From: an uncultured Desulfosarcina sp. | GTDB lineage: Bacteria > Desulfobacterota > Desulfobacteria > Desulfobacterales > Desulfosarcinaceae | DNA: 64,000 nucleotides | Assembly: GCA_963674945.2 (NCBI GenBank) | Contig: CAXXWQ010000003.1 | Location: forward strand, 1,856,001-1,920,000 | Reading direction: 5' to 3' | Shown here: positions 5,104-55,547 of the stretch, piece by piece | Position numbering within the stretch: the stretch's first letter is position 1 | Layout: every line of letters begins with the position of its first letter | The notes under the pieces: generated by a model | What the model saw: only the letters and a program-made list of their open reading frames with translations | What the model was told of the DNA's origin: nothing | The model's database searches: none | Made by a program: the position numbers and the translations under genes

Positions 5104-7012
5104 GGGCTCGCGCAAAAATAAATTCACATTTTCATGGTGAGATCGAATAGTTCCAATTTGGCCGTTGAGTATATCGTCTCAAGTTTATTTGATGCATTTG
5201 TTGGTCGGAGACCTTTTTACCTTTACGGTAATTCTTGTTGTTAAGAAAAACGCGGATTTTCAACCCTGTCGCGGTTTTGGTCGAACGAATGAATTTCAAC
5301 ACAGTTTCGTAATCAAGCAAGGGTTGTGCTGCCCAGTTGTTGCTAATGAAAGAAAACATACGGTGTTCGATGGGATTCCACTTGGAGGAACCGGGTGGAT
5401 AATGACATACTTTGACCTTCAGGCCGAAGCGGCTGCAAAGACGGATCTGCAGCTGCTGTTTCCAAAGCCGGATTCTGTAGCCATTGCTTCCACCACAATC
5501 GGCCAGAATGAGCAGACGATCGGCATCAGGATAGTGGCGAGAACCAACTTTTTGCCACCATGTACGGATAGAATCTACGGCAAACTCGGAAGTATCGCGA
5601 CTGGTGCCAACACATACAAAGCCCTTGTTTTGAATAATGTCATAGATACCGTATGGGATCGCAACACCATTGGCGTCAGAGGGGAAATCATGATCCAAGA
5701 CTTTTATCGGTGCTTGGCTCCATCGACGCCCGGCCTGATGGAACGGTCCTATTAGTTCTCGGCTTTTGGTATCAACACTGATCACGGGCATTCCGTCGGC
5801 TTTATAGCAGCGTATCTGGCTGCGAAGATAGCGAAACTGTAAATCACGCTGGTGGGGATCGGGTGGTTTACTCTGCCCGGATTCAAGACATTTAAGATTC
5901 AAGCGTAGGGAATAGTTCATTTGCTTTAACAATCTACCCACTGTTTTGGCCGATACCCGGATGCCGGCACGTTTCAATTGTTGGGCGATTTTTCCTGTGG
6001 TCTTGCGTGTCCACTTACACCCACTTACCGGATCACCAGCGGTCTCGTGCTCCATGATGACGGCGATGGCGTCTATGATTTCGGGCGTTTTTTTTCTTGC
6101 AGAAGGCGCCCGCCTCCTGCTGCCCGAACTTTTTGGGTACTCAAATCGCCGCTGATCAGTTCTTGTCGACCACGTGCTACGGTATGAGGATCCATGCCAA
6201 GCAGCGATGCGATGTAGGCGTCACCGCCGTGGCCCAACTTTAACGATTCAAGCCCGGCGTATAGCCGGCGTTGGCGTTCATCGAGCATACTGCAAAAAAG
6301 AACAATTATGGCCTTGGCCTCTTCTGCGGCCAAGTCGGGATTGGTTACGATAACAGAAGCCAAGGACTTTTTTAAACGGGATTTGCGAACTTTCTCCTGT
6401 CTGCGAGCAACAACGTTTTCAGGAGACAGATAAATGTAGACAGCCTCGAATTTTTTACGCTGAAGCCGGTTGTCGCGTACCAGTTGGGTCAACGCATGTT
6501 TGGTCTTGACGTGCAAAATATCTTTTAGTTCGGCGGCGCTGTACCCCGCCTCTGATCGGGCAACAAGGGTCTCGGCTGTTTGAAGCAAATTACCGAAACG
6601 TGAAAACCAAACATATTTGCAAGACCAAAGGCCAAGTTTAGAAAATCGCGCAATGCATAAAAGAGTATAAAATTTACCTCGATGCGAATAACTGCTCAGA
6701 TACTTCAGCTGCGCCAATTTTCGAAACAGCGTTGCTCGAGCCGGATTTCCAAGCGCCTCTTGAAGTTGATTAAAAGTGGCGATTTTGTGAACACCAAAGA
6801 AATCCTTTATGTCTTGGAGATGGTATTTTGTCTTATTCATAATGATACAATTAGCCCTACAGGTCGATTCTGTCAAGGCCAATGATCTCATTATGAGCAA
6901 CAGGACAATATATTGCTATTTAGCCAATTATACGGATTTGTTGCAAACAACCATAGGATAGTTAATGAGACTATTAGCCTCATAATATGTTAAATTATTT
7001 TTGCGCGAGCCC
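5104..7012 (-). mobile_element. ISAzo13-family insertion sequence
   Basis: Terminal IRs GGGCTCGCGCAAAAATAA (about 26 bp, 2 mismatches) at both ends; TAA direct repeats at 5101-5103 and 7013-7015; contains a DDE transposase. Confidence 0.92.
5132..6840 (-). CDS. ISAzo13 DDE transposase in two ORFs joined by a -1 frameshift at A8 (6088-6095)
   Basis: SVDTK, ADCGGSNG and KWNPIEHRMF motifs. The -1 frame at GAAAAAAAAC continues as TPEIIDAIAVIMEHETAGDP. Confidence 0.85.
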
Positions 7013-30299: not shown

Positions 30300-30645
30300 A
30301 AGACCCTTTGTTCAATTTTCAAACCGATGGTTAACTGGTCACGCTGTTCGTTTCAATCGATGCCATGGGCTATTAAGGGCAACATCCTTTCATCGGGAAA
30401 GCATCCGTAAAAAAACGGACAACGGCTATCGATACCCGATTCATCCGAACCAGAGAAATACCTCTTGACTCCATTGGATGTTTTTCAGAATATCGTAATC
30501 ATCGCAAGGCCTGATATTTGATGGCCTTATCGATTTTTTGCTTTTTCCTTGATGTGATAGCATTCCTTTTTCACAGAAGTTTTGATGCGGTCTTTTGAAA
30601 GACCGGTAGTTACGACTACCTATAGCGCGATGCGGAGGTTCGGCC

Positions 30646-31989
30646 GTGACCCCTCGTAAAAACGGAACTATTGTGAGCGCCCTTCTTTTCCTGGCTTTCT
30701 TATTGATTTCGGCGCCTGCTTTAACGGCATCATCAAAAGAAGACAGTCAGTGTGTCCTCTGCCACACCAACCTGAAGAGCCTGATCCGGTTGTGCTGGAA
30801 AGTGGAAAAAATAAAACCGAAACCCAAACAATCCAGCGAGACTGCGGGTGAGGGGTGAGGCGGCCCCTTGGCTCCGTTGGAGCTGTATCAGAAAATATAT
30901 GTGGATCCGGGTTTCCTTGAAACCAACCATGGCCAAATTCCTTGTAATAACTGCCACGGCGGCAACCCCGACGATTCCAACTGGCTAACGGCCCATGATT
31001 CGATGATAAAAGATCCCACAACGAGTAAAGCCCTGGCCATTTGCGGAGAGTGCCACGAAGAGATCGCCGCCAAAGCGGTAAGCAGTCTGCACTATACGCT
31101 GGCACCTTTTTCGCGCGCCATTGCAGCCAGAATGGGCGATGTACGCAAAGACGCCCGAAAACTTGTCGATCACGCCATGGACATCCATTGCAATACCTGC
31201 CATGCCAGTTGCGGACAATGTCATGTCAGCAGACCGGATTACGTTGGCGGTGGATTTTTGGCAAAGCACCATTTCAAGAGAACACCGGACATGGATACGA
31301 CGTGTGCCAGTTGTCACGGTGGTCGTGTCTACGGAGAGTATACGGCGGCAAACGAAGACAACGAAGCCGATGTCCACTTCGACGACGAAGAAATGACTTG
31401 CATGCAATGCCACAAATCACCCGAAATGCATGCGTGTGCAACGGATGTCACCAGCCGTTTCGAACTTCCGGAACGACCGAGATGTCTGCAATGCCACGAG
31501 GACGTTGTCGCTGAGAAGCCGAAGACGCAATCACACAAAATTCACGGAAACAAGGTGGCCTGCCAGGTATGTCACGCCCAAGCCACGAAAAATTGTTACA
31601 GTTGCCACGTGGGCACCGACAAAAAGGGGCTTCCCTATTTCAAGTGCCGCAAAACCGCGTTTGACTTGAAAATCGGACTGAATCCCAGAAAAACCAAAGA
31701 CAGACCCTATGACTGGGTCGTCTTGCGGCATCCGGCTGCAGATCCGAAGATTTTCGATCACTATGTAAAAAACAGCCTGCCCGATTTCAACGCCCTTCCT
31801 ACCTGGAAACTGGATACCCCGCACAGCATCCGACGTTCGACGGCACAAAACAAGGAGTGCAATAATTGCCATGGCAAAAAGGAGTTGTTTTTGACCCGAG
31901 ATGACGTTGCTGATGGAGAAGTCGAAGCAAACCGTAGCGTGATCGTTCCGGAATCTAAAATTCCCGAACCTGTTACATCCAAACCATAA
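30646..31989 (+). CDS. Exported 11-heme cytochrome c, predicted selenoprotein (UGA at codon 71, 30856-30858)
   Basis: Signal peptide and CVLCH before the TGA, ten further CxxCH after it in the same frame; SECIS-like hairpin immediately downstream; GGAGGT RBS before GTG. Confidence 0.82.
30859..30885 (+). promoter_or_regulatory. Candidate bacterial SECIS element
   Basis: GGCTCC-GTT-GGAGCT hairpin; G-initiated apical loop begins 17 nt after the UGA. Confidence 0.65.
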
Positions 31990-32001
31990 AGGAGGTTGAC
32001 C

Positions 32002-32583
32002 ATGAAAAGTGTCAGAAGAGAAATTTCTTTGGCATCGGTGTTTGTCTTTCTTTTTGTCTCCATCGTTTCGGCCGGCTACCAGTATACGGCCAACAAGGAT
32101 CATCTCGGGGGGGATCTGACACCTGAAGATGCCTATAAAATGATGGAGAAAGATCCGGAGCACGTTTTTCTCGTGGACTGCAGAACGCGCGCGGAATATC
32201 AATTTGTGGGTCATCCCGAGGGGTCGTACAACATTCCACTCCGGTTTCTGACAAACAACGTCGGCAAAAAGGGGTACACCGAAGAGATGAATCCCAATTT
32301 CGGCAAAGATCTGCTCGCCCGATTCAACCCGGAAACCGATACCCTCATTATCCTGTGCCGAAGCGGCAATCGGAGTTGTACAGCATGCAACGAAGCCATC
32401 AAGGCCGGCTTTGCCGAAAACAAGGTGTTTAATATGATGGGAGGATTTGAAGGGGGAAAGAACGAAAACAAGAACAGCACCTACTATGGCAAACGATGGG
32501 CCGGTGGATGGAAACTGGAAGGTCTTCCCTGGACGTATAAAATGGACCAAAAGCTGATGTATCAACCCGATATGAAGGGGTAG
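32002..32583 (+). CDS. Exported rhodanese-domain sulfurtransferase
   Basis: Sec-pathway signal peptide; LVDCRTRAEY..GHP; active loop LCRSGNRS; AGGAGG RBS just after the cytochrome stop. Confidence 0.88.
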   Translation: MKSVRREISLASVFVFLFVSIVSAGYQYTANKDHLGGDLTPEDAYKMMEKDPEHVFLVDCRTRAEYQFVGHPEGSYNIPLRFLTNNVGKKGYTEEMNPNFGKDLLARFNPETDTLIILCRSGNRSCTACNEAIKAGFAENKVFNMMGGFEGGKNENKNSTYYGKRWAGGWKLEGLPWTYKMDQKLMYQPDMKG

Positions 32584-32729: not shown

Positions 32730-32768
32730 AAAAAATGAAGCCGGGTCGACACTGGTCGGCCCGGCTTT
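32730..32768. terminator. Terminator hairpin between convergent operons
   Basis: AAGCCGGGTCGAC-loop-GTCGGCCCGGCTT with upstream A-run. Confidence 0.6.
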
Positions 32769-42467: not shown

Positions 42468-43877
42468 AGATGCATAGATGGAACACTTGCGCACATTCAA
42501 GGCCGCCTCCTGCAATGCCTCGGAAAATGTGGGGTGGCCATGGATTGTACGGGAGATGTCCTCGCTGCTGGCGCCGAATTCCAAAGCGAGCACACATTCG
42601 GCAATCATGTCGGCTGCCCGGGGACCGATGATGTGAACGCCCAGGATCCGGTCGGTCTTGCCGTGGGAGATGAGTTTGACGAAGCCGTCGGTCTCCCCCA
42701 TGCAGCGGGCCCGGCCTGCACCGGAAAAGGGAAAACTCCCCACGCAGTAAGGTATGTCTCTTTTGCGCACCTGCTCCTCGGTGAGTCCCACACTGGCCAC
42801 CTCGGGCCAGGTGTACACCACCGCCGGGATGGTGTCGTAGTTCACCTCGCCGGCCCGGCCGGCCATACACTCCACCGCGGCGGTGCCTTCGGCGGAGGCC
42901 TTGTGAGCCAGCATGGGACCGGGCACCAGGTCGCCGATGGCAAAGACGCCCTTTACATTGGTGCGATAGGTCTCGTCCACGATGATGTGGCCGGTTTTCG
43001 TATCCATCTCAACCCCCAATTTCCCGAGGCCCAGCCCTCGGGTCAGGGGGCGGCGACCGATGGAGACCAGAAGCCGGTCGAAGGTCATTTCCTCTTTCTG
43101 GTCACCGCTCTCCAACACGGCTTCGAGCTTGTTGCGCGCCACCTTGGCCGAAGCCACCCGTGTGTTGAGCTTGAACGCCATGCCCTGTCGCTTTAAAATC
43201 CGGTCCAGGGTACGCCCCACCTGGCCATCCAGGGTTGTTGCGATCTTGGGAAGCATCTCGATGACGGTCACCTCGGACCCCAGACGGTTCCATACCGATC
43301 CCAGTTCCAGGCCGATGTATCCCCCTCCCACGATGCCAAGACGTTTGGGAACGCTGTCAAAGGTAAGCGCTTGGCTGGAACTGACGATATGCTTGCCGTC
43401 GAATTCCAGACCTTTTACTTCGATAGGCTCGGAACCTGTGGCGAGAAGGATGTTCGTCGCCCCGAGAAAGATGGATTTTCTCCCTTCTGTCTTCACTTCT
43501 ACCACGGCCGGCTCCGGAATCGTCGCGGTGCCGTGAAATATTTCGATGCTGTTTCCTTCCAGAAGCTTTCGGACATTTTCGGTGAGATCTTCCACCACCT
43601 TGTCCTTTCGTGCCTGCATGGCGGGAAGATCCAGGGATACCTTTCCCGTTTGGATGCCGTATTCGGCGAAGCGATCCTTGGCCAGATGGTAGTATTCGGA
43701 GGCATCCAGAAGCGCCTTGCTGGGGATGCACCCCACGTTCAGGCAAACCCCTCCCAGGCGAGACGCCTTTTCCACCACGGCGGTCTTCATGCCCAGTTGG
43801 GCCGCGCGTACCGCCGCCACGTAACCGCCGGGACCGGAACCGATGATCACCAGATCGAACCGTTCTTTCTCTGCCAT
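42465..43877 (-). CDS. lpdA: Dihydrolipoamide dehydrogenase (E3)
   Basis: GSGPGG, GGVCLNVGCIPSK, HPTFSE; follows sucB. Confidence 0.95.
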   Translation of the reverse strand: MAEKERFDLVIIGSGPGGYVAAVRAAQLGMKTAVVEKASRLGGVCLNVGCIPSKALLDASEYYHLAKDRFAEYGIQTGKVSLDLPAMQARKDKVVEDLTENVRKLLEGNSIEIFHGTATIPEPAVVEVKTEGRKSIFLGATNILLATGSEPIEVKGLEFDGKHIVSSSQALTFDSVPKRLGIVGGGYIGLELGSVWNRLGSEVTVIEMLPKIATTLDGQVGRTLDRILKRQGMAFKLNTRVASAKVARNKLEAVLESGDQKEEMTFDRLLVSIGRRPLTRGLGLGKLGVEMDTKTGHIIVDETYRTNVKGVFAIGDLVPGPMLAHKASAEGTAAVECMAGRAGEVNYDTIPAVVYTWPEVASVGLTEEQVRKRDIPYCVGSFPFSGAGRARCMGETDGFVKLISHGKTDRILGVHIIGPRAADMIAECVLALEFGASSEDISRTIHGHPTFSEALQEAALNVRKCSIYAS

Positions 43878-43879
43878 CT

Positions 43880-45154
43880 CTACACCTCCAATGCCATGCG
43901 TTCCGGGTTCTCGACAAACTCCTTGACCCTTTTCAGGAAGGTCACCGCCCCCTTGCCGTCGACGATCCGATGATCGTAACTCAACGCCACATACATCATG
44001 GGCCGAATGACGATCTCGTCGTCGATGACCACCGGCCGCTTCTCGATCTTGTGCATGCCCAGGATACCGCTTTGGGGGCTGTTTAAGATGGGCGTGGAGA
44101 GAAGGCTCCCATAGACCCCGCCGTTGCTCACCGTGAAGGTCCCCCCCTCCAGATCGGCCAGTTCCAGCCGATTCTCCTTGATCTTGGTCACATAGTCCAC
44201 GATGGCCTGTTCCACCTGGGCAAAACTCATGCGCTCCACATGGCGGATTACCGGCACCACCAGCCCTCGCTCGGTTCCCACGGCGACCCCGATGTGCTGG
44301 TAGTTGTGATAGACGATGTCACCGCCGTCGATAAAAGCGTTGATCTCCGGAATCTCCTGCAGCGCCGCCACACAGGCCTTGATGAAAAAGGACATGAACC
44401 CCAGCGAGACCCCGTGACGCTTGTTGAACGCCTCCTTGTACAATGACCGGAGTTCCATGGCGCGGGACATGTCGATCTCGTTGAAGGTGGTGAGCATGGC
44501 CGTGTTCTGTTTGGCGGCCAACAGCCTCTCTGCGATCCGCTTGCGGATGGGCGTCATGGGCATTCGCTCTTCCGGATCCTTTGTTGCGGTTTCATCCGCC
44601 CTCCCGGGCGGTTCTTCAGGAATGCCGGCCGGGGCATTTTCCAGGTAGAGCAGCACGTCTCCCTTGCTGATGCGCCCGCCGGGGCCGGTGCCGGTAATCC
44701 TGGACGCGTCCAGGTTTTTTTCGGCGATCAGCCTGCGAACCGACGGCGCCAGGGGAATGCGGTCGCCATGGGCGGCGGGAAGCGACGACGCTTCTGTTTT
44801 TCGTGGCTCGGGGGAAGACTGCTTGGCCGCGGGTTCGGGCACCGGCTTGGTTTTGGGGGCTCCGGCGGCTGCCGGCTTCTCTTCCTTGCCCTTTTCGGAT
44901 TCGGACCGGGTGGCGGCACCGGATGGATCAATGGATCCCACCACGGTACCGATGGCGACGGTCTGTCCGGCTTCCACCAGTATCGAAAGCATCCCATCGG
45001 CCTCGGCCGCCACCTCCAGGGTCACCTTATCCGTTTCGATGACAAACAACGGCTCGTCCTTTTGTACGGCCTCCCCGTCCTTTTTGAACCATTCGGCCAG
45101 AACCGCTTCCTGGACCGATTCACCGACACTGGGGATCTTGATTTCCATGGACAT
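43880..45154 (-). CDS. sucB: 2-oxoglutarate dehydrogenase E2
   Basis: Lipoyl ETDKV, TTFNE, DHRIVDG. Confidence 0.95.
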   Translation of the reverse strand: MSMEIKIPSVGESVQEAVLAEWFKKDGEAVQKDEPLFVIETDKVTLEVAAEADGMLSILVEAGQTVAIGTVVGSIDPSGAATRSESEKGKEEKPAAAGAPKTKPVPEPAAKQSSPEPRKTEASSLPAAHGDRIPLAPSVRRLIAEKNLDASRITGTGPGGRISKGDVLLYLENAPAGIPEEPPGRADETATKDPEERMPMTPIRKRIAERLLAAKQNTAMLTTFNEIDMSRAMELRSLYKEAFNKRHGVSLGFMSFFIKACVAALQEIPEINAFIDGGDIVYHNYQHIGVAVGTERGLVVPVIRHVERMSFAQVEQAIVDYVTKIKENRLELADLEGGTFTVSNGGVYGSLLSTPILNSPQSGILGMHKIEKRPVVIDDEIVIRPMMYVALSYDHRIVDGKGAVTFLKRVKEFVENPERMALEV

Positions 45155-45165
45155 AAAAACTCCTA

Positions 45166-45235
45166 AGTGATGAGTAATCAGTGATGGATGATGAGTGATC
45201 GGTCATCTGTGACCAGAAACCGAAAACCGTGAACT
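45166..45235. repeat. Degenerate 7-bp tandem repeat (10 units) filling the sucA-sucB spacer
   Basis: agtgatg agtaatc agtgatg gatgatg agtgatc ggtcatc tgtgacc agaaacc gaaaacc gtgaact. Confidence 0.65.
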
Positions 45236-47939
45236 AATCGGTTCCGATGGCCCGATCCACGATGCCGTCCTGCTCCATCTTGTATATCTTCGGGAAACCC
45301 GTAGCCGGACTGGCCGAAGCATCCCGCCCGATGTAGTGGGGTTCCTTTTTCAAAAGCCGTGATAGCATCGGCCGCGTGTACTGCCAGGCACCCATGTTTT
45401 CCGGCTCCTCCTGCACCCATGTCCAGGTCACGGCCTTTTTATACTTGCCGATGACCGATACCAGGGCCGTTTCGGGAAAAGGATAGAGAAGTTCGACCCG
45501 TACGATGGCCGTATCGTTTGCGTTGATCTGCTGCCGCCGGGCAATCAACTGGTAGTAAATCTTGCCGCTGCAGAAGATCACCTTCTTCGCCGATGCCGGC
45601 GCATCGGCATCGTCCAGAACGGCTGAGAATCCTCCTTCTGCCAGCTCCTTCGTTTCTGAAACGGCCATGGGATGACGCAGGAGACTCTTGGGGGTCATGA
45701 GCACCAGGGGTTTGCGATAGGGTGCGTGGATCTGCCTGCGCAACAGGTGAAAGTACTGGGCCGGTGTCGTCGGATTGGCCACCTGAAAATTATCGCCCGC
45801 GCAAAGCTGGAGAAATCGTTCCAATCGGGCACTGGAATGCTCGGGTCCCAACCCTTCCCATCCATGGGGCAAAAGAAGGGTAAGACCGCTAAGCTGTTGC
45901 CACTTGTCCTGACCACTGGCGATGAACAGATCGATGACACACTGGGCATTGTTGACGAAATCACCGAATTGGGCTTCCCAGAGGGTCAGGACGCGGGGCC
46001 GACATACCGAATACCCGTATTCGAAACCCAGGACCCCTGCCTCGGACAAGAGGCTGTTGTGGACGTGAAATGCCGCTTGATCGGCTGTAAGGTGATTGAG
46101 GGGAATGTGGGAGGCGCCTGTCTCATAGTCCCAAAGCACGCTGTGCCGCTGGCTGAAAGTGCCGCGCCCCACGTCCTGTCCGCTGAGTCGAACTGGATAC
46201 CCCTCGGTGAGCAAGGTGGCAAATGCCAATGCCTCGGCGCCTGCCCAGTCGATTCCGGTACCACCGGTAACCGTCTCGCGCCGCTTGTCCAGGACCCCCT
46301 TGAGCCGCGGATGGACGGCAAAACCGTCCGGCATGGTGGCCAGGCGGGTGGCGAGGGTGGCGAGTTTCTCTTCACCCACTGCCGTCTCGACGGGAGCCGG
46401 ATCGAAAATTCCACTTACGCCCTCCCATTCGGGGAAACATTTTGGTTCTGGAAAGGTGCAGGTGGATCCGTGAATTTCCTCATAGGCCGCATCCAGTTCG
46501 TCGGTGACGGCCTGGGCCATCTCTTCCACCTGTCTTTTCTCGACCACCTTTCCGGCGGTGAGTTGGTCCGCATAAACCTGGCTTACCGGCGGCCGTTGCC
46601 GGATCCGCTGGTACATGGTCGGCTGGGTGAAATAGGGTTCATCCCCTTCGTTGTGGCCATACCGGCGATAACAGACCAGGTCGATGACCACGTCCTTATG
46701 GAAAGCAAACCGGTACTCCGTGGCAAGGCGCGCCACATGAACCACGGCTTCCGGGTCTTCTCCGTGCACATGGAAGATGGGTACCATGAGCATCTTGGCG
46801 ACATCTGTGGAATAGCGGGTGGAACGGGCATCTTCGGGCAACGTGGTATACCCGATCTGGTTGTTGATGACCACATGAATGGTACCGCCGGTACGGTACC
46901 CTGATAGTTGGGACATGTTCAGGGTCTCGGCCACCACCCCCTGTCCGGCAAACGCCGCATCTCCGTGGAGTAAGACCGGCATCACGGATTTCTCTCCGTC
47001 TGTCCCGAATCGATCCTGGCGCGCCCGGGCCACCCCCTCCACCACCGGATTCACCGCCTCCAGGTGGCTGGGATTGCTTACCATGTACAGGGTCAGCTCC
47101 CGTCCCTCTTCCATCATTCGCTGGGTCAGGTAACCATTGTGGTATTTTACATCGCCGGAGCCAATGAGATCCTGGGGATCATAACAGCTTTCAAACTCCG
47201 AAAAGATCTCCTCGGCCGGTTTGTCCATGATGTTGCGCAGCACGTTAAGCCTTCCCCGGTGCGCCATCCCCAGGATGATCTCCCGGCAGCCGGCGGAAAC
47301 GGAGCGCGTGCAGCATTCGTCCAGCAGTGGAATCAACGCTTCACCGCCTTCCAGGGAAAAACGGGTAACGCCCACGTATTTTTTATTGAGAAAGGCCTCG
47401 AACAGATTGGCCGCCATGAGCTTTTCCAGCACACCGGTTTGCTCGGCGGCGGTGAATTGGGAACTGTTTCTCGTCGGCTCCATCCGTTCTTGCAGCCAGC
47501 GGCGCTCGTCAGGATCCTGGATGTGCATGTACTCCACACCGATACTGTGACAGTAGGTCTGTTTCAGTTTTCCCAGGATCTCCTTCAGGGGCGCCGACGT
47601 CTGGAGCCCCAGATCCGGCGCGGCGAAACTTCGATCCAGGTCGGATTCGACCAGACCGAAAGCCCCAAGGTCCAGCAGCGGATGGGCCGTTGGACACGCG
47701 GCCAGCGGATCCATACAGGCCAGCAGGTGGCCGATGTCACGGTACCGGTGGATCAGGGCACCGACCCGGGCCTGACGGAATGCCTGTTCGGCGTCGGCGT
47801 CCCCCGGACCCACCGGCCCGGCCATCTCGAACCCCCTGAAAAACATTTTCCAATCTTCGGAAAGGGTCGATGGATCGGTTTTCCACTTTTTGTACTGGGA
47901 GTCGATGAAATCGGCGCTTAGGGTTTCCGACAGATTCAT
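45234..47939 (-). CDS. sucA: 2-oxoglutarate dehydrogenase E1
   Basis: GMAHRGRLN, GDVKYH, HGDAAFAGQG, WEAQFGDF, GPEHSSAR; AGGAGA RBS. Confidence 0.96.
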   Translation of the reverse strand: MNLSETLSADFIDSQYKKWKTDPSTLSEDWKMFFRGFEMAGPVGPGDADAEQAFRQARVGALIHRYRDIGHLLACMDPLAACPTAHPLLDLGAFGLVESDLDRSFAAPDLGLQTSAPLKEILGKLKQTYCHSIGVEYMHIQDPDERRWLQERMEPTRNSSQFTAAEQTGVLEKLMAANLFEAFLNKKYVGVTRFSLEGGEALIPLLDECCTRSVSAGCREIILGMAHRGRLNVLRNIMDKPAEEIFSEFESCYDPQDLIGSGDVKYHNGYLTQRMMEEGRELTLYMVSNPSHLEAVNPVVEGVARARQDRFGTDGEKSVMPVLLHGDAAFAGQGVVAETLNMSQLSGYRTGGTIHVVINNQIGYTTLPEDARSTRYSTDVAKMLMVPIFHVHGEDPEAVVHVARLATEYRFAFHKDVVIDLVCYRRYGHNEGDEPYFTQPTMYQRIRQRPPVSQVYADQLTAGKVVEKRQVEEMAQAVTDELDAAYEEIHGSTCTFPEPKCFPEWEGVSGIFDPAPVETAVGEEKLATLATRLATMPDGFAVHPRLKGVLDKRRETVTGGTGIDWAGAEALAFATLLTEGYPVRLSGQDVGRGTFSQRHSVLWDYETGASHIPLNHLTADQAAFHVHNSLLSEAGVLGFEYGYSVCRPRVLTLWEAQFGDFVNNAQCVIDLFIASGQDKWQQLSGLTLLLPHGWEGLGPEHSSARLERFLQLCAGDNFQVANPTTPAQYFHLLRRQIHAPYRKPLVLMTPKSLLRHPMAVSETKELAEGGFSAVLDDADAPASAKKVIFCSGKIYYQLIARRQQINANDTAIVRVELLYPFPETALVSVIGKYKKAVTWTWVQEEPENMGAWQYTRPMLSRLLKKEPHYIGRDASASPATGFPKIYKMEQDGIVDRAIGTD

Positions 47940-48258
47940 CTTGGAAAATCTCCTTATCCCTCGTTTCTGGACGGGTGCTGTAAAAAACGGCTTCCATGGA
48001 GTCTTATCGGGAAACGGTTCAATCGTAAGTTGAAACGACAAGTATCGGGGTCAATGATCATATTACCTTAACAATAACCATACCACAACCGGCAAGACAA
48101 AAAACCGATCTGGTGAAGAAAGCTCAAAAACAAATGTAAGAACCTGTATTTTTTATTTTTCTACCAACATATCGACATCGTTGCCATTACAAAACATGTA
48201 TCATTTGAGACAGGATGTCTCGAGACGAAAGTACCAACCATGCCAATCACCCCCATGA

Positions 48259-53508: not shown

Positions 53509-53598
53509 CTCAAAAAGCCATGGCTGGTCCATAAAAAATCGTGTATAGTAGTGTGACCTTTCATTGCATATCACTAAATTCTTTACATGGAGGACCCG

Positions 53599-54435
53599 AT
53601 GAAATGGCGACAATTTCTGACACCGGTGAAGTCCATTGACACGGACCAGGCCAAGGCCTACCTCGCCGATAAAAGTGTCGACGCGGTGACTGTTCTGGAC
53701 GTACGCCAACCCAAAGAATACGAGGCAGGCCACATCCCGGGGGCCGTTCTCGCCCCGTTGCCCCAGCTTGCCGACCACCTGGATCGTCTGGATGGAAGCA
53801 AGCCGATCCTGGTCTACTGCGCTTCCGGAGGCCGCAGCCGGGTGGCGGCACAGCTGCTCTCGGGCAAGGGGTTTGCGGAAATCATCAACGTCGCCGGCGG
53901 TTTCAATGCCTGGACCAGCGAAGCGGCATTTATGGGAGAGGAGAAAGGACTGGCGCTATTCGAGGGCGTCACCTCCGTGGAACGCGCATTGACCGTGGCC
54001 TACGCGTTGGAAGCCGGCCTGAAGGATTTTTACGATTCCATGGCGGAAAAGGTCGAGAGTGAACCGGCGAGACAACTGTTTCACCAACTGTCTCAAATTG
54101 AGGTGAAACATCAAGATCGAATTCTGGAACAGTTCGAAACGCTGACCGGAACACCCGCCTCACGGGAACGCTTCGAAACCGAACGACTCCCCGAAGTGCT
54201 CGAAGGCGGCCTGACCACCGAGGAGTACGCCAGTCTCCTCATGCCCAGCTACGATACGGTCACCGACATCATCGAACTGGCCATGTCAATTGAAGCCCAG
54301 GCACTCGATCTCTACCTCCGGGCATCGGAAAAGGCGGAGAACGAGACCGGGAAAAAGGCGCTGATACAGATCGCCAACGAGGAGAAGATCCATCTGGAAC
54401 GGTTGGGCCAGCTGATGGAGGAAGTGATTTCATGA
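53599..54435 (+). CDS. Rhodanese-ferritin-like fusion protein
   Basis: LDVRQPKEYEAGHIPGA, YCASGGRS, then EVKH and EEKIH di-iron motifs. Confidence 0.88.
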   Translation: MKWRQFLTPVKSIDTDQAKAYLADKSVDAVTVLDVRQPKEYEAGHIPGAVLAPLPQLADHLDRLDGSKPILVYCASGGRSRVAAQLLSGKGFAEIINVAGGFNAWTSEAAFMGEEKGLALFEGVTSVERALTVAYALEAGLKDFYDSMAEKVESEPARQLFHQLSQIEVKHQDRILEQFETLTGTPASRERFETERLPEVLEGGLTTEEYASLLMPSYDTVTDIIELAMSIEAQALDLYLRASEKAENETGKKALIQIANEEKIHLERLGQLMEEVIS

Positions 54436-55547
54436 AAAAACGCCTGGTCCTCATCGGCGGCGGCCATGCCCATATGGTCACCCTTTCCAAATTGTCTACC
54501 CTTGTCGAAAAGGGTCATTCGGTCACCGTTATCGGGCCGTCCGATCACCATTACTATTCCGGAATGGGACCAGGCATGCTATCGGGCACCTACCGACCGG
54601 ACGAGATCCGCTTCGCCACCAAAAAGGTCGTAGAGAAACAAGGCGGCATCTTCATCCAAGGAAAGGCGGTCCGAATCGATCCGGAAAAAAAGGTCGTCAT
54701 GTTAGAAAGCCAGGAGACCGTCCCCTACGACGTGCTCTCCTGCAATGCGGGCAGCCACGTTCCCAGGCCGGACATCCAGCAAGATGCGGCCGATGACATC
54801 TTCACCGTAAAACCCATCGAGCGTCTCATGGAGGCAAAAAAGCGCCTGGCAGACCATTTCGGCCGTCACAGGCCGGCGGTGGTCATCATCGGCGGAGGTC
54901 CTTCGGCGGCCGAGGTCGCGGGAAACGTCTGGCAGCTTGGGAAAACCACCGGAGGGCACATGCCGCGCATCACCATCGTTGCGGGAAAGACATTCATGTC
55001 CCGGTTTCCCGTGTCGGTACGCCGCCGGATCGTTCGCACCCTGGACCGCAGGGGAATCGAGATCCGGGAAGGCGCCTATGCCCGAGGTGCGTCTTCCTCA
55101 GGAATCGACCTGGACAATGGTGAGACACTGCCCGCGGATTTCATATTTTTGGCCCTGGGCGTCCGTCCATCTCCCATATTCGCCGACTCCGGTATCGAAA
55201 CGGGTCCCGATGGCGGCATGAAGGTCAATCGTTTTTTGCAAAGTACACAATATCCGGAAATCTTCGGCGGCGGCGACTGTATTTATTTCCAGGATACCCC
55301 CCTGGATAAGGTAGGCGTTTATGCCGTGCGGGAAAACCCGGTACTCTTCGCCAACATCGAAGCCCGATTAAATGGTGGTGAATTGATGCCCTTCGATCCG
55401 GGGGGGGACTACCTGCTGATTTTCAACCTGGGTGGGGGCGTGGGCGTTTTGAAGAAAAGATGGTTGGAATTCGGGGGGCGGGCCGCCTTCATGATCAAGG
55501 ATTATATCGATCGCAGGTTCATGAAAGAGTTCCAGGCCATAGAGTGA
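54432..55547 (+). CDS. FAD-dependent pyridine nucleotide oxidoreductase (resembles the N-terminal domain of SelD fusions / NDH-2-like)
   Basis: LVLIGGGHAH, YYSGMGPG, GGGPSAAE, FGGGDC, KDYIDRRFM. Confidence 0.82.
   Translation: MKKRLVLIGGGHAHMVTLSKLSTLVEKGHSVTVIGPSDHHYYSGMGPGMLSGTYRPDEIRFATKKVVEKQGGIFIQGKAVRIDPEKKVVMLESQETVPYDVLSCNAGSHVPRPDIQQDAADDIFTVKPIERLMEAKKRLADHFGRHRPAVVIIGGGPSAAEVAGNVWQLGKTTGGHMPRITIVAGKTFMSRFPVSVRRRIVRTLDRRGIEIREGAYARGASSSGIDLDNGETLPADFIFLALGVRPSPIFADSGIETGPDGGMKVNRFLQSTQYPEIFGGGDCIYFQDTPLDKVGVYAVRENPVLFANIEARLNGGELMPFDPGGDYLLIFNLGGGVGVLKKRWLEFGGRAAFMIKDYIDRRFMKEFQAIE

Follow-up and report, generated by a model that had tools for sequence, protein, structure and literature searches.

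The window analysed here, a stretch of 64,000 nucleotides from an uncultured Desulfosarcina sp., contains a gene pair encoding an eleven-heme c-type cytochrome and an exported single-domain rhodanese (Table 1). The cytochrome gene (30646-31989, plus strand) is a single frame of 447 codons with a GTG start, a TAA stop, 11 CxxCH motifs and one in-frame TGA at codon 71. Translation of the region with table 11 yields a 373-aa ORF (30868-31989) and the 193-aa rhodanese, and reading the TGA as selenocysteine (Sec) joins a signal peptide and one further heme motif to the 373-aa ORF. The gap between the cytochrome stop and the rhodanese ATG is exactly 12 nt and carries a strong ribosome-binding site (AGGAGG). 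The hydrophobic N-terminus of the rhodanese was recognised by eye as a signal peptide, and its CRSGNRS loop is followed by CTAC (C119-C129). Together with the match of the rhodanese to PF00581 (E 1.7e-15, 57.8 bits versus a cut-off of 22.2), these features bear out the preliminary description of the locus as a Sec-containing multiheme cytochrome paired with an exported rhodanese.

Two further statements of that description hold in part. A 14-bp hairpin does lie 155 nt downstream of the pair, where a terminator had been proposed, but the terminator scan flagged no terminator-like site 3' of the pair on the plus strand, and the longer U-tract belongs to the minus strand; the hairpin could belong to the convergent TatD gene or to both. 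The pair is flanked by an acyltransferase gene upstream and the TatD gene downstream, and no membrane partner adjoins it at this locus, as had been noted, but relatives often add a porin, a cytochrome b, a cytochrome c3 or a YeeE/YedE transporter. The TGA is also spanned by three contigs from a single study that may be the source, and no difference is listed for them. In run X1, a 44-base contig over 30850-30887, in the TGA region, has one differing letter and possibly represents a strain variant.

Table 1. Features of the cytochrome-rhodanese locus (positions within the window)
Feature	Position	Strand	Remarks
Ribosome-binding site GGAGG	30634..30638	+	7 nt 5' of the GTG start; from sequence
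Eleven-heme c-type cytochrome, 447 aa with TGA read as Sec	30646..31989	+	Full-length alignment with 33 relatives
Cytochrome N-terminal signal peptide, about residues 1-28		+	Judged by eye
Heme motif 1, C36-H40	30751..30765	+	5' of the TGA; missing from the annotated 373-aa product
In-frame TGA, predicted Sec71, context GEG-U-GG	30856..30858	+	Conservation, Cys homologues
SECIS-type hairpin, 7 bp, apical loop GUU	30869..30885	+	Begins 11 nt 3' of the UGA
Heme motif 4, C182-H186, CNTCH	31189..31203	+	Counterpart of OTR heme II in the alignment; candidate heme of the active site
Arg227, candidate anion-binding residue	31324..31326	+	Tracks with Sec/Cys rows
Ribosome-binding site AGGAGG	31990..31995	+	Immediately 3' of the cytochrome stop
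Exported single-domain rhodanese, 193 aa	32002..32583	+	ATG start, TAG stop
Rhodanese loop C119-RSGNRS, then C126-x-x-C129 (CTAC)	32356..32388	+	Conserved in 73 rows
14-bp hairpin, possible shared terminator	32737..32768	.	Between the pair and convergent tatD

Elsewhere in the window, a rhodanese-domain gene is followed by a pyridine nucleotide-disulfide oxidoreductase gene (53587-55544, plus strand); the oxidoreductase is of a kind that occurs N-terminal to SelD (TIGR03169, 248 bits, below the cut-off of 310). A complete 2-oxoglutarate dehydrogenase E1-E2-E3 cluster (42468-48041, minus strand) is present in this dsrA-bearing anaerobe, and an ISAzo13-family transposase gene (5135-6055, minus strand), covering only profile positions 86-387, lies amid chemotaxis genes.

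Comparison of related sequences indicates that codon 71 very likely encodes Sec, and the conserved TGA, the Cys homologues, a covarying SECIS element and the Sec machinery of the host all agree with the original assignment. The cytochrome has relatives in 44 of the 401 phylum genomes searched (47 matches), and 46 of these matches keep the TGA, the exception beginning beyond the site. A set of 41 close relatives yielded nine matches, one with Cys (EGCGG, L042) and one frameshifted. Metagenomes gave at least 593 matches; in the best 80, representing 78 distinct loci, the TGA is present at 77 (72 recognised by pattern and five from alignment rows; one locus does not cover the site) and Cys at none, in a set that leans toward Sec forms because the query was mostly of the Sec type. 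All 34 full-length rows, which share 32-61% identity, keep heme motif 1 and G70, the signal peptide 5' of the TGA is conserved, and the same alignment contains no invariant non-motif Cys besides the Sec column. In 50 genome contexts the TGA is never swapped for TAA or TAG. Since TGA is also the terminal stop of several of these cytochrome genes, it has not been reassigned. All 119 other top database matches start 3' of the Sec codon; thus, annotation shortens the entire cytochrome family.

Variants of the site were also seen. The metagenome loci L129, L131, L134 and L153 carry a Cys-Sec dipeptide (GEC-U-A), with no rhodanese gene within 3 kb of L129 and L131, and the proteins P0271, P0277 and P0296 have Cys-Cys at the Sec position. 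A wide search, from which three spurious rows were dropped, provided 54 full-length distant relatives, a set in which Sec forms cannot occur because database Sec forms start past the codon. Cys is present in the same linker of 16 of these, while the other 38 contain Tyr, Trp, His, Arg or no loop at all; two rhodanese fusions are among those with Tyr. In part of the family, the fold therefore works without a chalcogen residue. A rapidly built tree of 63 rows places the Sec forms in four groups, interspersed with Cys and other forms, and its supported branches are compatible with a single origin of Sec.

The hairpin behind the UGA has the properties of a SECIS element, i.e., a stem-loop shortly 3' of the UGA with an apical loop starting with G. 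The fold of the single sequence is unremarkable (z -0.76), and it is the covariation that is unusual. In the 31 of 50 contexts that share the CCG..GG register (the other 19 fold the hairpin in a shifted register), 95.3% of 232 cells are paired, with 16 double changes, a degree of pairing reached by none of 500 shuffles, and controls slid along the sequence are 33-52% paired. An inverted stem goes together with a change of APLE to EPLA in the protein, so that the pairing is kept. The host genome encodes selA, two selB, a Sec-type selD, two tRNA-Sec calls and dsrA; the presence of selA discriminates only weakly, as it is found in 42 of the 44 carrier genomes versus 371 of 401 overall. The first selB is located at C3:439046 and one tRNA-Sec at C3:722697. 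The second selB (G000:C3:570751-572793, minus strand) scores above the cut-off and has the second ARAGORN tRNA-Sec (UCA) directly upstream; the two could constitute a separate Sec or Cys recoding cassette.

The rhodanese is of the catalytic type, in which a Cys opens a six-residue loop; in 73 rows C119 is invariant and both further cysteines, C126 and C129, are at least 90% conserved. Its association with the cytochrome was followed in wide flanks of 40 of the 53 non-self genes and of L001, the 13 omitted genes lying mostly near contig ends. A rhodanese is the next gene in 34 of the 39 genome loci with a callable next gene; counting fused and nearby copies as well as adjacent ones, it accompanies the cytochrome in 37 of 41, including L065, where it is fused to the cytochrome, and L074 and L001, where it lies upstream. 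No rhodanese was present among the genes scanned at L057 and L075, L076 is cut by a contig end, and the C-terminal piece of the frameshifted L068 lay outside the scan. Among the best 80 metagenome matches, 65 loci had room for a neighbour; a rhodanese is the next gene in 51, lies within 3 kb in seven (one of them actually next) and was not found near the remaining seven. The host genome has only 13 rhodanese genes in 7.1 Mb, so the chance of adjacency is well under 1%. The two-gene unit first described from a single locus is therefore conserved across genomes and metagenomes, with fusions as well.

The partner rhodaneses belong to four types: CKSG/CKTG single-domain, CDTG tandem, CYTG tandem and the CRSGNRS-CxxC type of this window, and the loop Cys motif was detected in 32 of 34. 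This variety, together with the cytochrome-rhodanese fusions (P0124-P0126 and L065), indicates that the pairing reflects function rather than shared descent. As a rough sign of linkage, 25 of 119 rhodanese matches of the window type lie on a contig equal in length to that of one of the 119 cytochrome matches. Many of the cytochrome matches bear the JGI label 'thiosulfate/3-mercaptopyruvate sulfurtransferase', which was discounted, having probably spread from rhodanese fusions.

Other neighbours recur as well. Genes for YeeE/YedE transporters are found at L001 and L074, and cytochrome c3 is the next gene at L065 and L068, the latter (G409:C1:2036267-2036921 and around) being frameshifted into pieces with the TGA kept. 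A multiheme protein and a cytochrome b are encoded near the gene at L049 and L082, and L171, L180 and the L070 group showed a similar arrangement on visual inspection; in P0123 the cytochrome b is fused. A decaheme cytochrome and an MtrB-type porin precede the gene at L058 and L081, in one clade only, and at L076 and L079 selA is found two genes 5' of the cytochrome gene.

Two predicted models were compared, without hemes, with 48,161 chains: model 1 represents the mature cytochrome (pLDDT 80), model 2 the part after the TGA, built from a more diverse alignment (pLDDT 93). The octaheme tetrathionate reductase (OTR) of Shewanella oneidensis (SO4144, PDB 1SP3) is the top match of both, with Z 8.2 (rmsd 4.5, 259 aligned residues; runner-up 2.9) for model 1 and Z 9.7 (rmsd 4.6, 266 aligned; next 4.2, other multiheme enzymes) for model 2, which reaches only Z 3.6 with MtrA-type wires. 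In the profile alignment, hemes 3-9 and 11 map in order onto OTR hemes 1-8. The profile-profile match to OTR itself (98%) was rejected as evidence, as other multiheme proteins score 98-99% and masking of the motifs lowers the value to 0.15%. With the profile score being unspecific, the link to OTR rests on structure, and the models suggest with moderate confidence that the cytochrome is built on the eight-heme core fold of OTR.

Foldseek found nothing at E<=0.001 with either model, a result uninformative on the five-heme selenoenzyme MccSep because the presence of its structure in the libraries is uncertain. A search of solved structures with the cytochrome sequence gave no matches, and the profile gave generic multiheme matches only. 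No NCBIfam model attains its cut-off for the cytochrome. TIGR04315 (cut-off 375 bits) leaves it unmatched, matches 15 of 67 relatives weakly (best E 5.9e-10), and in the host genome finds two other genes and not this cytochrome.

True OTR-family genes also exist in the host. One of them (L091, G000:C4:2869851-2872244) has an in-frame TGA in NNF-U and four extra N-terminal hemes; an Fe-S protein gene and a polytopic membrane gene were seen by eye upstream, and a rhodanese-domain gene lies about 2.3 kb downstream. The second, with NNFC, is located at C4:1477692-1479026. Among 23 OTR relatives, NNFU occurs in six and NNFC in 17, and the Sec form of OTR is entered in Table 1 of PMC13188914; on this one fold, Sec therefore emerged at two distinct sites. 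A further host gene (G000:C3:2337382-2338500) encodes an exported protein of 373 aa with eight hemes that is related to hemes 4-11 of the cytochrome family. It matches by hhalign at 99% and still at 77% after the motifs are masked, which no other non-self case survived; it has no Sec linker, and no rhodanese lies beside its gene.

Nine non-motif histidines are conserved in the cytochrome (95, 117, 149, 208, 244, 262, 297, 300 and 393), and H362, present in 139 of 176 rows overall, is a possible tenth ligand. Nine to ten histidines for 11 hemes leave one or two hemes without a His sixth ligand; H362 is missing from a part of the Sec/Cys rows (kept in 35 of 50), so that the number of open hemes may be two. 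Heme II of OTR is reportedly, from the work of Mowat in 2004, the catalytic heme. By the OTR map, the heme lacking a distal His is likely heme 4, because it is equivalent to OTR heme II, which is ligated by Lys56 (PMC3769277). Sec71 is inferred to reach heme 4. Arg227 is found in 46 of 50 Sec/Cys rows versus nine of 26 aligned rows without Sec/Cys (12 more have gaps), and Arg361 in 48 of 49 versus 23 of 35, a comparison confounded by the greater distance of the rows without Sec/Cys. The polypeptide per heme amounts to 4.2 kDa, versus 6.1 in OTR, and falls in the range that PMC7096707 gives to pure electron-transfer cytochromes.

The gene pair is proposed, with about an even chance of being correct, to be a periplasmic reductase of rhodanese-bound sulfane sulfur that uses Sec71. 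In this scheme, Cys119 of the rhodanese would be loaded with sulfane sulfur from polysulfide or thiosulfate, and the selenolate of Sec71, in the glycine-rich linker between hemes 1 and 2, would attack the persulfide next to heme 4, where Arg227 could hold the anion. Two electrons from the bis-His heme chain would then split the Se-S bond and sulfide would be released. The periplasmic cytochrome c3 pool is the presumed electron source and, in relatives, a neighbouring quinol-oxidising cytochrome b. The sulfur role is suggested by the coupling to rhodaneses, the fusions and the YeeE/YedE genes, the electron input by the cytochrome c3 and cytochrome b genes next to, near or fused to the cytochrome, and the enzyme-like fold by OTR being the best match of both models. 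Against this proposal count the 38 of 54 distant relatives without Sec/Cys, the wire-like heme density and the missing Lys and NNF(C/U) elements of OTR, and further the unspecific profile match to OTR, the empty Foldseek result, the chance that two hemes are open, and the loci with no rhodanese detected nearby (seven of 65 in metagenomes, and L057 and L075). MccSep provides a precedent, and such a mechanism would resemble those of MccSep and of the Sud/Psr system without membership of either.

A bolder version, tentative and less likely than not, assigns Sec71 as the sixth ligand of heme 4. This would agree with the His count, the mapping to OTR heme II and the occurrence of Cys, Tyr and His in the linker. 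The cytochrome would then contain a naturally occurring c-type heme with His/Sec ligation, accepting sulfane sulfur directly from the rhodanese persulfide, the third independent Sec-heme invention after MccSep and Sec-OTR, and would provide about one in nine of the sampled Desulfobacterota genomes with a molybdenum-free route of sulfur respiration.

The pair could also work in the opposite direction, oxidising sulfide or polysulfide during sulfur disproportionation or electron export, loading the rhodanese and passing electrons down the hemes. Gene context gives no direction, the decaheme cytochrome and MtrB-type porin at L058 and L081 suit electron export, and His/Cys-heme enzymes such as TsdA work both ways, as described in PMC6879331. 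This reading is nevertheless unlikely, as the nearest fold, OTR, and the precedent, MccSep, are reductases, the cytochrome c3 and cytochrome b neighbours fit electron input, and the porin context is confined to one clade.

Just as unlikely is an OTR-like reductase of a small free oxyanion such as tetrathionate, thiosulfate or nitrite, acting at the open heme 4, with Sec71 in the second sphere, as is the Cys or Sec of OTR itself, and the rhodanese merely scavenging or passing on the product. The OTR fold of both models would fit this function, Arg227 and Arg361 suit anion binding, and the NNFC and NNFU forms before OTR heme II make a Cys or Sec there a habit of the family. However, the segment with the OTR Lys ligand is missing, the host already possesses two true OTR genes, and the repeated recruitment or fusion of four rhodanese types argues for direct hand-over, as in the preferred sulfane-sulfur reductase.

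An electron conduit or store without enzymatic function, in which Sec71 would serve to tune or ligate a single heme while the cytochrome re-reduces the rhodanese or the two act separately, appears quite improbable. It would account for the low mass per heme (within the PMC7096707 range) and for the many distant relatives that manage without Sec/Cys, and the extra conserved cysteines of the rhodanese could form a redox centre of their own. Yet Sec with a maintained SECIS in four tree groups implies selection on chemistry, and the fold matches the enzyme over the MtrA-type wires.

A unit for the reduction or detoxification of selenite and other selenium oxyanions, as proposed for the Geobacter ext cluster, is very unlikely. 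The selA genes two positions upstream at L076 and L079 would agree with it, as would the pairing of a rhodanese with a Sec-cytochrome in the ext cluster, described in PMC5877670, and the reduction of selenite by MccSep, which is less efficient than that of polysulfide according to PMC13510729. Selenite is, however, a side activity even in MccSep, the cytochrome has no homology to ExtKL, and apart from selA it is sulfur transporters that recur in the neighbourhood, not selenium genes.

It is extremely improbable that the TGA truly terminates translation or specifies Trp and that the annotated 373-aa ten-heme protein is the product: the 119 other top database matches are all annotated so and Trp occurs in the linker of a few distant relatives, but c-type heme attachment needs an exported protein, so the short product without a signal peptide could not receive its hemes, and heme 1 is conserved 5' of the TGA, which is never replaced by TAA or TAG in the 50 contexts, ends several of the genes and is followed by a covarying hairpin.

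MccSep is, to our knowledge, the only multiheme selenoenzyme characterised so far. The cytochrome family would be a second multiheme selenoprotein architecture and is present in about one in nine of the phylum genomes (44 of 401). It is easily overlooked, since its annotated products lack the signal peptide, heme 1 and Sec. Should the family reduce rhodanese-bound sulfur, it is a candidate for a poorly known periplasmic polysulfide or thiosulfate step in sulfate reducers and disproportionators and gives a clue to the cellular role of OTR-fold proteins; if Sec ligates a heme, the coordination chemistry would be new in nature.

MccSep is equivalent to ExtKL of Geobacter sulfurreducens (GSU2937-2936, NF040886), which is also a periplasmic multiheme c-type cytochrome with one Sec and a SECIS, is likewise split by annotation and clusters with a rhodanese (ExtH), so that shared chemistry is plausible. 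According to PMC13510729, MccSep is a five-heme protein whose U325 sits in a C-terminal Ig-like domain and in which Cys239 ligates a heme, and it reduces polysulfide via Sec beside the His/Cys heme, whereas the cytochrome described here has 11 hemes and an N-terminal Sec. NF040886 (cut-off 250 bits) does not match the cytochrome at E<=0.1 or anything at the locus in the genome search, and a search of 61 genomes of the host class, in which the positive controls were unmatched too, gave no match anywhere. The porin ExtI, the Rieske/cytochrome b protein ExtOP and ExtM/N with ExtKL are features of the ext cluster that were not found at the locus, the sole match being a weak one to ExtM (26.6 bits versus a cut-off of 800). 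The affiliation with the Geobacter ext system suggested in the preliminary description is thus supported neither by the ExtKL/MccSep model nor by the architecture, and the fold matches OTR instead.

In Wolinella succinogenes, the exported rhodanese Sud feeds sulfane sulfur to Psr, a molybdopterin enzyme with a membrane anchor. The supply by an exported rhodanese is alike, whereas the catalytic partner here would be a heme/Sec protein. TsdA and SoxAX are di- or triheme class I cytochromes, unrelated in sequence and fold, with Cys in place of Sec. Their chalcogen residue at a heme, which forms a covalent sulfur adduct (PMC4423706), may nevertheless serve as a model for the proposed Sec71 step.

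The cytochrome differs from OTR by three extra hemes (1, 2 and 10), by an unrelated helix pair instead of the GK/NNF(C/U) segment, so that a Lys56-type ligand is absent, and by the position of Sec, about 110 residues before heme 4 versus 10 in OTR. It is soluble and paired with a rhodanese, and the cytochrome b that usually neighbours OTR is absent at this locus. The family is not among the 119 selenoprotein families in Table 1 of PMC13188914, a 2026 inventory with three cytochrome entries (ExtKL, GSU2204 and OTR), and the deep-Sep text contains neither 'cytochrome' nor 'heme'. As far as this inventory and the searched literature, outside subscription journals, show, the selenoprotein family is undescribed so far. 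It combines what is probably a known fold with a functional precedent.
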